Origin: an uncultured Clostridia bacterium
GTDB lineage: Bacteria; Bacillota; Clostridia; Saccharofermentanales; Saccharofermentanaceae
Assembly: GCA_946407705.1 (NCBI GenBank)
Contig: CAMJPC010000006.1
Span: forward strand, 43,753-107,752
Length of the DNA stretch: 64,000 bases
Direction: 5' to 3'
The position numbers and the translations under genes are program-made. This document shows positions 57,746-63,734 of the stretch, piece by piece; the first letter of the stretch is position 1, and the number at the start of each line of letters is the position of its first letter. The notes below the pieces were generated by a model that ran no database searches, was not told the origin of the DNA, and saw only the letters and a list, made by a program, of their open reading frames with translations.

Positions 57746-58063
57746 TTATCTGATATGTATTCCCTGAACGGTATAACGGCCGTCATAAATGCATATTCCA
57801 AAGAAAAAGATCTGCTTTCCCTTCACCGTATGCCCGTTCATCCTGCCCGATGCACTTTTCCCGTTTTGGGGAATACCTTCCTTCGTGTGAGGTTCGATAC
57901 TGATCTTGTTCCAATCAACAACTTGGACTATCGAAAAAAAAGAGCTATAACCCCGGGTTCCGCCGTCAGCCGCCTTGGCAACGCTTAAGGGATTCGGCAC
58001 TAAGCAAGGAATCAAGAACAAGATAACAACTGCGATTATGACAGCTTTGGTTTTAGTCTTCAT
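57746..58063 (-). CDS. Small membrane-anchored hypothetical protein (DGGT motif)
   Basis: GGAGGA RBS before MKTKTKAVII; N-terminal hydrophobic helix. Confidence 0.65.
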   Translation of the reverse strand: MKTKTKAVIIAVVILFLIPCLVPNPLSVAKAADGGTRGYSSFFSIVQVVDWNKISIEPHTKEGIPQNGKSASGRMNGHTVKGKQIFFFGICIYDGRYTVQGIHIR

Positions 58064-58086
58064 ACGTATCCTCCTATCTGCGTCCT

Positions 58087-58728
58087 TCAGTGATACAGAA
58101 ATATACCGAAGCCGAAATAAACAACTCCCATCACGACAATATCCACAACGCACAAGAGCACATACCATTGTTTCTTTACCAACAGACGAGTAAAAAAGAA
58201 TCCTGCCACGGCAAAGCAAAGACCGAAGGCAATCACGGGAGTGAAGTCCTTCCAAAAGACGCTGCGTCCCATCAACTTGGTCGCTTTTTCAGCTTCAATA
58301 ATGGTCTGCTCGAGCTGCTTTTGTTCGGCAAAGCAGTCAAAGCCGGCTTCCAGTGACATTACTCCCATTTCCTTCGCTCTGCTTGACTTATCCGGATCGT
58401 TCAGCCTTTTGAATCTTTCGAAGTTCTCTTTATTTTCCGAATAATAGAAATTAACACCATACGTGCTTGTGTTATCAACACGATGGATAAGGATCATACT
58501 AATGCTGTAAGGTATGACTGCTGTTCCTTCAGACAGATGCACCATGTCATTTTCATAAACACAGTCCGTGTCTTTGATGACCGTAAGGAGCATCCCTTCA
58601 GGTATCTGAGGGAATCTTACATAATGTCTTGCGTCGTTTGCGGCGACTTCATATCCGCTAATGAAAAAGACCGCGATTTCGATCAGAAGAAGAATATATG
58701 CTGCTATGGTCTTGCCGTTGATATTCAT
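58087..58728 (-). CDS. Three-TM hypothetical protein (cassette type B, copy 2)
   Basis: Paralog of 59201-59830 (FP.IPEGM, YSENKE.FERF.RLN, FDCFAEQ.QLE); ATGA overlap with the upstream gene. Confidence 0.8.
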   Translation of the reverse strand: MNINGKTIAAYILLLIEIAVFFISGYEVAANDARHYVRFPQIPEGMLLTVIKDTDCVYENDMVHLSEGTAVIPYSISMILIHRVDNTSTYGVNFYYSENKENFERFKRLNDPDKSSRAKEMGVMSLEAGFDCFAEQKQLEQTIIEAEKATKLMGRSVFWKDFTPVIAFGLCFAVAGFFFTRLLVKKQWYVLLCVVDIVVMGVVYFGFGIFLYH

Positions 58729-59159
58729 TTTGAGGCCTCCGTGATACCCAAAGCGCGGTTTATCTCTTCATTGATGCTTTCTATTTCTTCAGGGCTGCGG
58801 CTGTGATCTACTATCAAGGGCTCAGTATGAGTATGATGGTTGTAACTATACATCGACACCCCCAAAAAGACCGGTAATTCAAGAACAGATACGATGAGAC
58901 AGAAAAGACAGCCTTTGAAGTTTCTTTGAAGATATCTTGCTTCAGTTAATCCCAAGCCTGAAAAGAAAGCTGCTGCCATCGGACCGGTAAACATCAGTAA
59001 CATAAGCAGTTTATCCATCGGTTCAATAATAGATCTAAGGACGCTGGGCAAATATTCGCCGGCAAAATACAGACCGTAAATAGCGAGCGGGATAAGCGTC
59101 GCGATCAGTGCCGGTAGGAAAAACGGATTCTTTTCTCTTGGATTATTCATATCATTCAT
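58725..59159 (-). CDS. Small three-TM hypothetical protein (cassette type A, copy 2; DUF4190-like)
   Basis: Paralog of 59827-60240 (NPFFLP.LI...P; C-terminal E.ESI.E..N..L). Confidence 0.75.
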   Translation of the reverse strand: MNDMNNPREKNPFFLPALIATLIPLAIYGLYFAGEYLPSVLRSIIEPMDKLLMLLMFTGPMAAAFFSGLGLTEARYLQRNFKGCLFCLIVSVLELPVFLGVSMYSYNHHTHTEPLIVDHSRSPEEIESINEEINRALGITEASK

Positions 59160-59200
59160 GTTCTCACCCGCTGCCTGAGCCCTTCAGATTAAAGACAGAT

Positions 59201-59830
59201 TTAGCTGATAAAACCAAATAAGATGACAAAAAAACCGATTATATCCACGACGTATAAGAATGAGTGCCATTTCAACATCGAAAACGCATATGTAAGGAAT
59301 AAACCTATCACAAGCAAGCACACACCTTTGATGATCACAGGCTCAAACTCTTCTTTGAAAGCGCTCTCATGCATTGCTTTGGTCTTTTCTTCTGCCGCAT
59401 TATATATTGCTTCAAGCTGCTCTTGCTCGGCAAAGCAGTCAAAGGCTGCATCAAACATAACGACTCCCATATCACTTGCGTTCATTAACTTATCCGCAGT
59501 GTTCAGTCTTTCGAATCTCTCGAAAACCTCTTTGTTTTCTGAATAAAAGAAATAAACACCGCGGTTATGGATTCCGTAGGGTTTGACGACCGTTCCGGAA
59601 GAAAAGTGTACCGTATCGCGGCCATATTCTTTTAAGTCCATATCTTTAATGAAAGTGATATGCATCCCTTCAGGAATCTCAGGAAACTGTATGGGGCCGT
59701 GACTTGCAGAACTGGCAGCAGCACTATGTCCGCAAAGAAAAAATACCGCTACATCGATGATGAACAGAATAAAAGCTAATATCGTCTTGCCGGATGTTCC
59801 GTTTTCGCTATAGCCGGCAGTCATATTCAA
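59201..59830 (-). CDS. Three-TM hypothetical protein (cassette type B, copy 1)
   Basis: Paralog of 58087-58728; start overlaps the upstream stop. Confidence 0.8.
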   Translation of the reverse strand: MNMTAGYSENGTSGKTILAFILFIIDVAVFFLCGHSAAASSASHGPIQFPEIPEGMHITFIKDMDLKEYGRDTVHFSSGTVVKPYGIHNRGVYFFYSENKEVFERFERLNTADKLMNASDMGVVMFDAAFDCFAEQEQLEAIYNAAEEKTKAMHESAFKEEFEPVIIKGVCLLVIGLFLTYAFSMLKWHSFLYVVDIIGFFVILFGFIS

Positions 59831-60240
59831 GTTTCCCCTTCCGGTTTGTCTTTCAAGGTGTGGTTTACTATTTCTTTAATGCTTTCTCTCTCAGCAATCT
59901 GTTCCGAGCTGAGAGTGTGAGGCGCTATCGAGCCACAATGATCATGACTGCCTGTCGGTCTTGAAAAATAGACCGACAAACTTACAACCAACAATACGTC
60001 AATAAGAGATAAGACGAGACAGAAAGAACATCCTGTGCCCGGCGCATCCGTTTTTCTTGCAATGACTAATCCCACGATCGAGAAAACAAGTGCTGCCAAC
60101 GAAGTGATCACTATCAAAGGGTACACTTCAAAAAATCCAACGAATCCTCCGTACAGAAAACCGACCGGTAAAAAAGCCGCCAGGATCAAAGATGGTAAGA
60201 AAAACGGATTTATCTCTTTTTCATAATCCATTAGTTCCAC
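59827..60240 (-). CDS. Small three-TM hypothetical protein (cassette type A, copy 1; DUF4190-like)
   Basis: AGGAGGTGG RBS; paralog of 58725-59159. Confidence 0.75.
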   Translation of the reverse strand: MELMDYEKEINPFFLPSLILAAFLPVGFLYGGFVGFFEVYPLIVITSLAALVFSIVGLVIARKTDAPGTGCSFCLVLSLIDVLLVVSLSVYFSRPTGSHDHCGSIAPHTLSSEQIAERESIKEIVNHTLKDKPEGET

Positions 60241-60249
60241 CTCCTTATC

Positions 60250-61389
60250 TCACGCCACCGGTTCCAGGCAAAACTTGCCTTTCTTATATTCTTCTCCGCC
60301 CCACTCTACTACCGTTAATCCTTTTCGCACGGCCGGATTTATGCATCCAAGCTCCTGCGGTCTGATATTTACCTTCTCTTTTGAAGGATACCAAAGCATG
60401 TTGACTCTGATAACGGTATCAGGTTCAGGCGATACCTTCATTGATGCGGCATTCTCATATGCCGTGGTCTGGAATGTTATGACGTTATACTTATTGCCTT
60501 CCAATTGAGGGAGCCAGTATCCGATAAAGTCAGCGGACTCGATATCAGACAGGCCGAGCTGCTTTAATGCCGTCTCCAAAAAAGTTTTTGTGTCTTCCCC
60601 CTTAACACAGAAGCCACGGCTCAGATCGGGCTTTATCACCAGATCGGCTTCCCAATAAAGGAAGGGATATTTGTTGCCGTTTTTGTCTGTAAGAGTGCCG
60701 TCAGGTGAAGCCGTAACGGTCCAGCCGTTCTTCCGGTTAAACAAAGGATAAGTCTTGGTCAATCTGCCGTTCAGAGCCAGACTGACACTGACTTCTGTCT
60801 CCGTTTTCGGATAAAGGTAAATAACAGGAGCCCTCGCTTTTGAAATATAAGTAGCAAAAAAAGAACCAATGCCCCAGAATAACAAAAGCGTGACCACAAA
60901 AGTTACGATGTTGCCCACCATGCCGAATTCACTGTCAATCAACCAATAAACGAACAAGCCGATCAGGAAACATATTCCTCCTGCTATGGCGCTTTTTATA
61001 AAGCCCTTCCTTACATCCTGAAGTCTCATTTGCTTCACAGCCTCATGCAATTCCAAGCTGTTGGCGGCATCGTTAATGTAGTATTTGTGGCTAATAAAAA
61101 TCCCCGTATCAGGATCAGTAAAAGATACTTCGCCTCTGGACATGATCATATTCACTTGAAACCTCTTGCCTGCGGGAAATGTTGTATCCTCGTCTGAGAT
61201 TTCATGGTCAAACCAGATCTCCCCATTGTATCTATATAGCCAGTCGCTGTCACAACTTGCGGACTGACTGCTGACATAAAGAACCGTAATACAGATGACA
61301 AGCGCATCTAATATGGCAAACAGCATAATGGTGGTTCTGGAAAGCTTTGTTGCCTTGTTCATGCCAATCGTACCATCCTCTCCGGTCAT
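60250..61389 (-). CDS. Membrane protein with B-like N-terminal module and C-terminal PVIYLYP...EWGG domain
   Basis: APVIYLYPKTETEVSV, W.VTASPDG, YPFLYWE, FIGYWLP and VVEWGG. Start uncertain; may be the MNKATK ATG. Confidence 0.8.
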   Translation of the reverse strand: MTGEDGTIGMNKATKLSRTTIMLFAILDALVICITVLYVSSQSASCDSDWLYRYNGEIWFDHEISDEDTTFPAGKRFQVNMIMSRGEVSFTDPDTGIFISHKYYINDAANSLELHEAVKQMRLQDVRKGFIKSAIAGGICFLIGLFVYWLIDSEFGMVGNIVTFVVTLLLFWGIGSFFATYISKARAPVIYLYPKTETEVSVSLALNGRLTKTYPLFNRKNGWTVTASPDGTLTDKNGNKYPFLYWEADLVIKPDLSRGFCVKGEDTKTFLETALKQLGLSDIESADFIGYWLPQLEGNKYNVITFQTTAYENAASMKVSPEPDTVIRVNMLWYPSKEKVNIRPQELGCINPAVRKGLTVVEWGGEEYKKGKFCLEPVA

Positions 61390-62313: not shown

Positions 62314-62469
62314 TACCGTCACCCTCCGCGTCTGCTTGATGCCTTCAGTGTGTCATTGTCCGCACAAAATTGAAAGCACCACACCGGTTTTTGTGCGCAC
62401 CGTTTTGGTAACACCTTTATTTTCAAGGGTTTCCGGCACATTCCTTTTGAATCCCATATGATCTCCCGC

Positions 62470-62853
62470 TTAATAACAATTAAGAATGAACAAACCAAGT
62501 TTGAATGTCTTATTTAAGAATTCAGAGCCGAACACAGCGCCAATGCTACCCAAAAATGCCATCAGTCCCGATAAAACAATGGAGATCAAGATAACCCACC
62601 AGCGCCACTCCTTAACGGTCTTATATCCTATGACAAGATAAACGACAGTCAGGATAAGATACAGAACCATTCCCCCCAAAATGATCATGCCTTCCAGAGT
62701 CTCATCACTGTTGTGGTAAAAATCAAAACTGGCATTCTTCAACACTAAATACCACACAACCACAGATACGATAAATGACCAAAGGATCTGGATAAAAAAA
62801 TAAACTGATTTTTTCATTATCTTCCCCTGCCTGTTTTTCTTAAGCCCTTTCAT
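62470..62853 (-). CDS. Small multi-TM hypothetical protein
   Basis: Three or four hydrophobic helices; likely start MKKSVYFF. Confidence 0.6.
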   Translation of the reverse strand: MKGLKKNRQGKIMKKSVYFFIQILWSFIVSVVVWYLVLKNASFDFYHNSDETLEGMIILGGMVLYLILTVVYLVIGYKTVKEWRWWVILISIVLSGLMAFLGSIGAVFGSEFLNKTFKLGLFILNCY

Positions 62854-62885
62854 TATACCAAGTATTGCCGTATGTCAAAAATAAA

Positions 62886-62918
62886 TGAGACTGCCTCAAG
62901 ATAACCGAGACAGTCTCA
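62886..62918 (-). terminator. Terminator after the lipoprotein gene
   Basis: TGAGACTG/CAGTCTCA stem followed by a T-rich run on the minus strand. Confidence 0.6.
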
Positions 62919-62945
62919 AATCTTCCGTCAGCCGGAAAACAATTC

Positions 62946-63734
62946 TTATCCGAATATTTCATGCTCCATAGTCGTCATGTTAAAACATCTCATGCTGTCC
63001 GAACCGCTAAACTGCGAATCTGCCGAATAGCAGATGGGACATAAAACACCGGGTGTTCCGTCAGGCATAACGAACGGCGTGATCTTATCGTATTTTACCG
63101 ATGCGAGTGTCTTATCAAGATCATAACTTGAAGGATTTTTCTCACAGTATTTTTTCAGGATTTCGGTTGTCTTTGCGAAAAAAGCTTCGTCGGTCATGCC
63201 AAGACGCTTAGTGACCTCACTGTCTTCAAGGGTCTTCAGTGTATCGAGATCGTAGTTAAACACATCACGGGTAAAATAATCAGTAAATGTCTCACTTGCA
63301 CAGATTATGATGGACAGAGTGTTGTCTTTAACGCCCCAGAAGATTTTGGTAGACATGCCGTTAGCATGATCTTCATTCACTTCAAGCTTGTAGTTCTCCT
63401 TGATGTATTTGCTGAGTGATTCATTGATCTCAGTTGCTTCCTTACCGTCTACGGTGATCTTCGGAACAACCATTGTATACTCGCTCTCGCCTTCAAGAGA
63501 TTTCACCAAAGTGATCAGCTCAACTTTGACCTTGTGGGAACCGGTAGCGGCCTCACTTGATTTGACATCACCGGTTGTTGCCTCTGAAGGCGCTGTTGTA
63601 TCCGTCGTTGCTTCTGTCGTCACTTCCGTTGTTGTTGCCTGATTCTCAGTTGCAGGTGTCTTTTTGCTGCTGACACAGCCCGTAGCCATGAGCGACAGGC
63701 AAAGTGCCGTTGATATTAAAGCTGTTTTCTTCAT
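62946..63734 (-). CDS. Hypothetical lipoprotein with Thr-rich linker (possibly RsiV/DUF3298-like fold)
   Basis: Lipobox ATGC, TTEA-rich linker, LSIII...FNYDLDT.KTL segment; AGGAG RBS. Confidence 0.7.
   Translation of the reverse strand: MKKTALISTALCLSLMATGCVSSKKTPATENQATTTEVTTEATTDTTAPSEATTGDVKSSEAATGSHKVKVELITLVKSLEGESEYTMVVPKITVDGKEATEINESLSKYIKENYKLEVNEDHANGMSTKIFWGVKDNTLSIIICASETFTDYFTRDVFNYDLDTLKTLEDSEVTKRLGMTDEAFFAKTTEILKKYCEKNPSSYDLDKTLASVKYDKITPFVMPDGTPGVLCPICYSADSQFSGSDSMRCFNMTTMEHEIFG

Follow-up and report, generated by a model that had tools for sequence, protein, structure and literature searches.

Between 57.7 and 62.4 kb of the 64,000-nt stretch analysed here (hereafter the window, to which all coordinates refer), taken from contig CAMJPC010000006.1 of an uncultured Clostridia bacterium, seven closely packed genes lie on the minus strand (Table 1). 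Judged by the domains it encodes, this locus serves as home operon to a transmembrane one-component regulator that joins a helix-turn-helix (HTH) domain of the XRE type to about six membrane helices. The comparison with other loci and genomes (given L and G labels, respectively) shows a module composed, in this order, of a promoter element, the regulator, a lead protein bearing an ectodomain that we call PVIYLYP, and recombining paralogs, the A and B proteins, that consist of an anchor only. The locus ties together four uncharacterised families (the membrane domain of the regulator, PVIYLYP, A and B), linked by gene order, by the homology between anchors and cassettes, by a common promoter box and by recombination between near-identical strains. 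The role we favour, at a probability of roughly 0.4, is that this BcrR-like regulator controls an envelope-defence regulon, of which the A/B cassettes would be diversifying membrane components.

The regulator and the PVIYLYP protein

Residues 5–63 of the regulator match the Pfam families HTH_3 (E 1.1e-12) and HTH_31 (E 5e-11), and hydropathy indicates about six hydrophobic segments between residues 83 and 291, followed by a basic C-terminal end. A preliminary description of this DNA had rightly placed an XRE-type membrane regulator just upstream of the lead gene. The Pfam and NCBIfam scans of this protein revealed no phosphotransfer or further domain, NCBIfam giving generic HTH matches only. 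The regulator thus appears to have both features of transmembrane one-component regulators, i.e. an N-terminal DNA-binding domain and membrane helices without phosphotransfer, and it is predicted to bind DNA and to control its targets from the membrane. Its homologs begin with MDFGEK; the reading frame can be extended to a GTG at 62322.

The family of its membrane domain comprises 51 clusters, all at least 71% identical except two short fragments that match less than one third of the domain, and no relatives were detected outside rumen Clostridia. The ratio of nonsynonymous to synonymous divergence (dN/dS) of the regulator is 0.04–0.11. Six of the 37 genomes of the genus possess this membrane domain, each time encoded directly upstream of a PVIYLYP gene.

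The relatives of the lead protein are far more numerous: a search of 5.8 billion proteins retrieved 3318, and their common part is the C-terminal domain of about 195 amino acids. This PVIYLYP domain is 60–72% identical across different anchors, with dozens of invariant residues, many of them aromatic or acidic, and its dN/dS is 0.08. It acts extracellularly, since in one relative (P0012) a signal peptide and dockerins are joined to the domain, the protein consisting of the signal peptide and then two dockerin-PVIYLYP units.

The N-termini of these relatives fall, among the best 120 of the 3318, into three unrelated types: T1 (63 proteins), a multi-pass anchor of about 130 amino acids; T2 (46 proteins), the type of the window, in which the AlphaFold model of the lead protein displays a first transmembrane helix (TM1), a small beta ectodomain, a long helix and a TM2-TM3 hairpin; and T3 (7 proteins), an anchor of three transmembrane helices. 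The anchor of the lead protein varies between species at the locus itself, and each of the three follows this regulator immediately: T2 in the window and L042, T1 in L005, L007, L027 and L043 (L023–L025 being assigned to T1 from length and adjacency), T3 in L053 and L056. The regulator-PVIYLYP pairing is thus seen with each anchor type.

The lead protein is modelled by AlphaFold with a mean confidence score (pLDDT) of 86.6 at full length and of 91.8 for the PVIYLYP domain only, the predicted TM-score (pTM) of the latter being 0.87. Foldseek searches against the PDB gave no match at E ≤0.001 with either model: the full-length one had weak SH3-like matches to its small beta domain, and the domain-only one reached a TM-score of 0.18 at best. 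No match was obtained either by searching PDB sequences, with a single sequence or a profile, or by searching the literature for the PVIYLYP motif, and a Pfam scan of all 62 members of the PVIYLYP alignment yielded sub-threshold noise only (IglE_N, DUF2750, DUF7878). The sole structural match of the fold comes from BFVD: A0A3G4ZNZ8, an uncharacterised protein of 406 amino acids from Terrestrivirus, a giant virus assembled from a metagenome (E 8e-14, TM 0.71, 20% identity), which gives no functional clue. Two IMG/VR contigs (L051, L052) also encode a PVIYLYP domain, 47–49% identical. With thousands of relatives in gut and rumen Clostridia, a confident model, no match among solved structures and no annotated function, the domain is a good target for structural and functional work.

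The distribution of the domain is patchy. It occurs in 19 of the 37 genomes of the genus, with one to five copies each (a single one in the genome of the window), in none of 24 genomes of other families of the order, and in 8 of 401 genomes sampled across the phylum. What lies next to the other PVIYLYP genes (RecJ, RelA, a methyltransferase, an ABC ATPase) follows no consistent pattern, and this context is therefore uninformative on the domain. Some relatives carry PVIYLYP genes in tandem, e.g. L036 (G016 contig 4, about 271.8–273.5 kb), and several frames are broken by one or two stop codons, which suggests a turnover of the gene family.

The A and B cassettes

Behind the lead gene the array of the window reads A1-B1-A2-B2. 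As proposed from the first reading, A1/A2 and B1/B2 are pairs of paralogs, 32% (E 7e-14) and 48.5% identical (over 206 amino acids, E 2e-61) by BLASTP; direct DNA repeats spaced by 1072–1105 nt define a tandem unit of about 1.09 kb. The identical block of 18 nt that had been noticed in both B genes is exact; it codes for part of the conserved FDCFAEQ motif and lies inside a repeat of 149 nt (D1) that is 76% identical overall. Each pair had also been described as coupled by overlapping stop and start codons. Direct reading of the sequence bears this out for A2/B2 (ATGA). For A1/B1 an overlap requires a TTG start of B1, whereas all homologs use, and B1 most likely uses too, the ATG located two bases past the A1 stop (TGAatATG), so that this pair is tightly coupled without overlap.

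Both families are related to the anchors of PVIYLYP proteins, each to a different one. The A family is close to T3 (HHalign 99.9%, E 1e-31), and T3 anchors nest inside the A-family tree. A proteins have the three helices of T3 and, instead of the PVIYLYP domain, an acidic outer tail of about 40 residues; alignment of the A/T3 family gives as hallmarks an N-terminal NPFFLPALI, the three helices and GCxxCL in the third. Some A' proteins, encoded by an additional A-type gene of other loci, even retain YLSKAK, the motif that marks the junction before the domain in the full-length proteins.

For B, the preliminary description suspected homology with the N-terminal half of the lead protein (B0, i.e. 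its T2 anchor), which BLAST does not detect significantly (31% over 61 amino acids, E about 0.3). HHalign gave 83.6% with a narrow B profile against T2 anchors, and 97.4% (E 1e-11) with the B family of 76 sequences, over 166 columns that span TM1, the small beta domain, the helix and the hairpin; the controls (the two other anchor types, the A family and a reversed profile) all remained at or below 2.6%. B0 thus appears from these profiles to be a true yet remote homolog of B, at about 14% identity. The hallmarks of this B/T2 superfamily are TM1, a small beta domain with P-x-G-T, a helix with EQ-x-LE and a C-terminal hairpin; in B proteins TM1 is followed by an outer domain of about 120 residues and by the hairpin.

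This homology, like the variation of the array described below, agrees with the earlier interpretation of the locus as a variable recognition or immunity system. The part of that interpretation in which B modules are swappable N-termini of the PVIYLYP domain gains no support. Besides the low identity between B and B0, a search of 1.84 billion representative proteins with the B profile returned 69 clusters, all of stand-alone proteins (45–215 amino acids, except one of 293), and no B::PVIYLYP fusion of about 380 residues; among the anchor types of the locus, the one with a close relative in the array (T3) has it in the A family and not in B. No B relatives were found on viral contigs, and B-like genes also exist in genomes devoid of any PVIYLYP gene, e.g. 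G005.

The tails of A and the middle part of B, about 120 residues long, are predicted to face outward from hydropathy, charge pattern and the dockerin fusion of P0012. As the A-B pairs are translationally coupled, we infer that the two proteins form heteromers, with a predicted 1:1 stoichiometry in the membrane. Neither lead, A nor B matches known immunity, defence or phage families above the cut-offs of Pfam, NCBIfam, PADLOC and PHROGs. Every locus examined has all its A and B frames intact.

Apart from the array, a few distant single-copy B-like genes (L046, L045, L048/L049) are 29–38% identical. One distant B-like gene stands beside a BlaI/BlaR1 (M56) pair and a GH25 lysozyme, one beside a membrane S41 peptidase and a C1 peptidase, and one directly upstream of the gene for an extracytoplasmic function (ECF) sigma factor, which is followed by a gene of 311 codons without family match whose product could be, at a guess, the anti-sigma factor. 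A related S41 peptidase is encoded directly upstream of the regulator in L007.

The composition of the array varies, as the first reading had anticipated. The lead gene is followed by A-A'-B-A-B in L042, by the same genes and then a distant B-like gene of 243 codons in L005 and L027, by A-A'-B-A-B-A-B in L007, by A-B in L043, by A-A in L025, by a single A in L053 and by none of these genes in L023 and L024. The number of A-B pairs thus goes from one (L043) through two (window, L005, L027, L042) to three (L007), and the extra A' gene, present in L042, L005, L027 and L007, is missing from the window and L043. Around the module, different species have unrelated genes; the array of L043 is adjoined by a Bce-like FtsX/ABC transporter and a response regulator.

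The most informative comparison is with L042, a metagenome contig of a near-identical strain that has the same flanks (about 98% identical). The regulator (98.7%), the lead protein (97.9%), A2 (99.3%), B2 (95.3%) and the small protein that ends the operon (99%) hardly differ between the two; the differences lie in A' and in the first B, which is 58% identical to B1 of the window, whereas the B of L005 is 88% identical to it. We mapped the exchanges by sliding-window DNA identity against the window. From 61460 to 59930 the best match is L042 (94–100%, mostly 98–100%, the latter range also applying to the body of A1). At 59900–59810, i.e. the tail of A1 and the start of B1, it becomes the A' tails of L007 and L027 (91–97%, or 93–97% for the A1 tail itself, with only 82–90% for L042), then L005 at 59780–59240 within B1 (86–98%, L042 being poor or absent), and again L042 from 59210 to 57800 (94–100%, with a dip to 86–92% at 58730–58670). 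Because the identity switches at its tail, A1 of the window is a chimera of an A body and an A' tail formed with the deletion of A'; the crossover sits in the shared tail that codes for PHTLSSEQIAERESI. In the tree, B1 of the window goes with L005, separately from L042 and L043. Compared with its sister strain, the window has had its B1 replaced by an allele of another lineage.

Cassettes also shift their position within the array, since the A in third position in L007 and the A' of L042 share 92% identity. Besides, the synonymous divergence (dS) between the window and L005 is 0.25 for A1 and B1 and 0.55 for the regulator, which points to a more recent exchange of the cassettes between lineages. 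Altogether the alignments show cassettes gained, lost, fused and replaced by homologous recombination, both within the array and between lineages.

The dN/dS values of B (0.2–0.54) and A (0.4–0.86) indicate that both evolve faster than the regulator and the PVIYLYP domain. Between B2 and its counterpart in L007, the outer domain is 60% identical and the membrane segments 81–85%, with dN/dS of 0.38 and 0.19–0.25 respectively.

The promoter box, the predicted regulon and the competing explanations

About 110 nt upstream of the regulator start are conserved in all 11 loci aligned, while the flanks further upstream are unrelated. This promoter element travels with the regulator gene and carries a box, TGTTACCAAWAYGGTGCG, which in the window reads TGTTACCAAAACGGTGCG (62396–62413). 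Conserved within it are the block TGTTACCAA[AT]A[CT]GGTGCG, then a second copy of GGTGC some 21 nt later, a -10-like hexamer, a CACACTGAAG leader and a ribosome-binding site. In the window (62340–62395, minus strand) the second GGTGC is flanked by a perfect inverted repeat of 9 nt, CGCACAAAA ... TTTTGTGCG, and by eye other loci have at the same place different arms, again partly complementary, e.g. GCGCGAAAA / TTTTCCGC; such arms might form a hairpin that covaries, or else a dyad operator.

A single copy of the box is present in the window and six in the genome from which the window comes, against none for a reversed-pattern control. Each of the 6 genomes with the regulator has exact boxes, and none of the 31 other genomes of the genus does; where regulator-free genomes have boxes with a single mismatch, the rest of the element was missing in both cases inspected. 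In the window's own genome, one copy with its -10 region (contig 1, about 175.5 kb, L066/L075) precedes an operon encoding an ABC-2 permease (426 amino acids), an ABC ATPase (245) and a fusion of ABC-2 with an Rce1-like/CAAX (Abi) protease (788). The extra boxes of G009 (contig 27) and G031 (contig 12) precede the same operon, which is therefore box-linked in three genomes. The combination of ABC-2 permease, ABC ATPase and CAAX protease is typical of bacteriocin-immunity loci.

Another copy (contig 1, about 339.7 kb, L067/L074) stands before the gene of an A-like membrane protein of 232 amino acids, and the further copies stand before genes for a 189-residue protein with an A-type tail, a 128-residue protein and a B-like protein of 232 residues. 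Elsewhere, one box precedes an A-family gene in G031, and one precedes the gene of the 128-residue protein, followed by a T2-like gene, in G017. The L067/L074 copy is followed by ATGGATTTTGGTGTAAAAATA, a remnant of the first codons of the regulator (MDFG...), which suggests that promoter and 5' end were duplicated and then re-used before another gene.

In the envelope-defence regulon that we favour, the regulator would bind the box, a putative operator located just upstream of the -35 region, and would thereby control its own operon together with dispersed targets, i.e. the ABC-2/CAAX-protease operon and further A-like and B-like genes. The outcome would be an inducible defence of the envelope against agents that act on membrane or wall, e.g. 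bacteriocins, peptide antibiotics or phage. In this defence the A/B cassettes would supply membrane proteins that protect in the manner of immunity proteins and whose repertoire diversifies, while the PVIYLYP protein would be the conserved component outside the cell. An immunity role is plausible, and the common promoter box before the ABC-2/CAAX-protease operon counts indirectly toward it.

The closest known counterpart is BcrR, a membrane-bound regulator of bacitracin resistance; BreG is another membrane-bound regulator, of bacteriocin synthesis (PMC10269533). The likeness to BcrR of Enterococcus faecalis is one of architecture: an N-terminal DNA-binding domain joined to several membrane helices, without kinase or receiver. 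Moreover, BcrR controls bcrABD, and the box described here also precedes an ABC transporter operon. The DNA-binding domain of BcrR is of the XRE type and is followed by four membrane helices, whereas we count about six here, in a membrane domain that forms a narrow family of its own. Another difference is the absence of an adjacent bcrABD-type transporter with undecaprenol kinase or phosphatase: PVIYLYP and the A/B array follow the regulator, and the ABC-2/CAAX operon is elsewhere in the genome.

The strict succession of a regulator gene and the gene of a membrane protein with an extracytoplasmic domain also recalls ToxR/ToxS, TcpP/TcpH and PsaE/PsaF. There, however, the regulators have a winged helix of the OmpR type and a single membrane helix, and ToxS, TcpH and PsaF are single partner genes without recombining arrays of paralogs and without sequence relation to the present proteins. 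Tandem immunity genes are known from Staphylococcus aureus, where membrane proteins of the DUF443 family (TsaI) are encoded behind tspA, and bacteriocin-immunity clusters associate CAAX/Abi proteases with ABC-2 transporters. The array shares with them its diverged polytopic membrane paralogs in tandem, variable between strains in copy number and alleles, and it is tied by the common box to an ABC-2 and Rce1-like/CAAX operon. It differs by the lack, at the locus, of a toxin or bacteriocin gene and of any match to DUF443 or another immunity family, and by its unit, in which two unrelated proteins are coupled and each has homology to anchors of the gene family upstream.

Several points weigh against an envelope-defence regulon. 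Its function has to be read from the context, because only the HTH matches a described family. The link between box and regulator is partly trivial, as each regulator gene brings its own upstream box; the extra boxes could be by-products of cassette duplication (one copy keeps the 5' remnant of the regulator), and two of the genomes with the regulator lack extra boxes. Near the locus, no gene for a bacteriocin or toxin was seen. PVIYLYP genes lie mostly beside housekeeping genes and without regulator, so that the domain may be unrelated to defence. Finally, the high dN/dS of A (up to 0.86) could reflect relaxed constraint rather than diversifying selection. If the regulon is real, on the other hand, it offers a tractable membrane-bound one-component regulator with a defined operator and targets in a rumen genus dominated by uncultured members, as well as a new type of strain-variable envelope-defence locus that would be relevant to competition in the rumen community.

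A rather doubtful alternative is that PVIYLYP, A and B are membrane cofactors of the regulator, comparable to ToxS for ToxR, to TcpH for TcpP or to the sensor domains of RsgI anti-sigma factors; their outer domains would bind extracellular ligands (such as plant or bacterial wall polysaccharides) and set the activity of the regulator, the cassettes being alternative inputs. The strict adjacency of regulator and PVIYLYP genes goes in this direction, many transmembrane regulators having a co-encoded membrane partner (PMC10269533). The dockerin fusion places the domain in an extracellular setting of the cellulosome type, and its strong conservation, with invariant aromatic and acidic residues, fits a specific ligand site. 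A comparison can be made with RsgI-SigI, the polysaccharide sensors of cellulolytic Clostridia: in both cases the regulator system spans the membrane and the families of outer domains also occur in cellulosome-type proteins. Here, however, the regulator is an XRE one-component protein and not an anti-sigma/sigma pair, the outer domain is carried by a separate protein, and no carbohydrate-binding fold was recognised; more generally, neither Foldseek against the PDB nor Pfam detected a carbohydrate-binding or enzyme fold. Most PVIYLYP genes, besides, have no regulator (19 genomes of the genus against 6), sensor inputs are not usually swapped between near-identical strains, and the box-linked ABC-2/CAAX operon resembles an output rather than an input.

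Unlikely as well is an undescribed system of surface variation or immunity, in which a PVIYLYP domain controlled by the regulator would be presented on interchangeable anchors; the A-B pairs would assemble or compete with the full-length protein, and their exchange would re-tune recognition or resistance.

It is improbable that the array is a phage interface, i.e. that the variable outer domains of A and B are receptors, decoys or exclusion proteins diversified under phage pressure. The replacement of alleles and the change of copy number between near-identical strains would be expected in that case, as would the patchy, accessory distribution of the locus and the faster evolution of the B outer domain compared with the membrane segments. 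Yet overall dN/dS stays below 1, the PADLOC and PHROG scans gave no match, B has no relatives on viral contigs, and no prophage genes flank the array.

More improbable still, A and B might be functionless remnants of former PVIYLYP paralogs that lost their domain and were kept by chance. Their homology to PVIYLYP anchors, the YLSKAK junction conserved in some A' proteins, the high dN/dS of A (0.4–0.86) and the relatives with tandem, sometimes stop-interrupted PVIYLYP genes would suit such a decay. It hardly accounts for A and B frames that are intact in all loci examined, with their ribosome-binding sites and stop/start coupling retained and with invariant family motifs (NPFFLPALI, GCxxCL and ESIxE in A, FYYSE and FDCFAEQ in B), nor for B being its own superfamily of stand-alone proteins, found even where no PVIYLYP gene exists (G005).

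Lastly, a polymorphic toxin-immunity system, with the lead protein as delivered toxin and A/B as cognate and orphan immunity proteins, is barely tenable: a full-length gene followed by diverged membrane paralogs does recall tspA/tsaI of S. aureus and other immunity arrays, but conservation in the lead protein is highest in the C-terminal domain (dN/dS 0.08) and it is the N-terminus that varies, contrary to what polymorphic toxins show, the N-terminal types are anchors that cross the membrane several times and not secretion or trafficking domains, orphan toxin tips and secretion-system genes are absent nearby, and PVIYLYP genes commonly stand alone without A or B. We thus disfavour the lead protein as a polymorphic toxin on account of this reversed conservation. 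As to orphan toxin-tip cassettes, none was found: the downstream genes are anchor homologs, and the array contains no PVIYLYP fragments.

Gene layout and neighbouring genes

Table 1. Features of the regulator operon, in coordinates of the window
Feature	Position	Strand	Length and remarks
Promoter/leader element of the regulator operon	62314-62426	-	alignment of 11 loci
XRE regulator with membrane helices	61420-62313	-	297 aa
Lead	60250-61389	-	379 aa
Lead, N-terminal T2 anchor (B0)	60838-61389	-	AlphaFold model, HHalign against the B family
Lead, C-terminal PVIYLYP domain	60250-60837	-	about 195 aa; extracellular
A1	59827-60231	-	134 aa; ATG start preceded by an AAGGAGG ribosome-binding site
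B1	59201-59824	-	207 aa
18-nt block in B1	59427-59444	-	exact copy in B2 at 58325-58342
A2	58725-59159	-	144 aa; paralog of A1
B2	58087-58728	-	213 aa; paralog of B1
Small	57746-58063	-	105 aa; strong ribosome-binding site TAGGAGGA, signal-like N-terminus

From the regulator to the small gene, the intergenic gaps are in order 30, 18, 2, 41, -4 and 23 nt, and no convincing internal promoter or terminator was found. The whole string of genes is predicted to be one transcript from the conserved promoter. The G+C content of the array region is 0.42–0.44, against 0.48–0.50 in the flanks.

The small gene that ends the operon is a real conserved gene, whose family members are 44–58% identical. They are short secreted or anchored proteins with the motif AKAADGGT..Y...VIDWN...GKQ..FG..VYDGRYTVEGIH. 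Homologs also exist in genomes of the genus that have neither regulator nor array, two of which (G002 and G004) additionally lack any PVIYLYP gene; as the family occurs without the whole system, small is not a specific part of the array, and we ruled it out as a component of the cassette system. It is probably co-transcribed with the array, yet comes from an independent family. Its resemblance to the box-linked protein of 128 residues is weak and limited to the N-terminal part (E 3e-5).

Upstream of the regulator (62470–63734, minus strand) are encoded a protein of 127 amino acids with three transmembrane helices and a lipoprotein of 262 amino acids with a threonine-rich linker. Scans of all nine proteins with Pfam, NCBIfam, PADLOC and PHROG gave no match except the HTH of the regulator. 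In G017 (L025), a distant homolog of the lipoprotein (24% identical) is found just past the A genes, and it is maybe loosely linked to the module.

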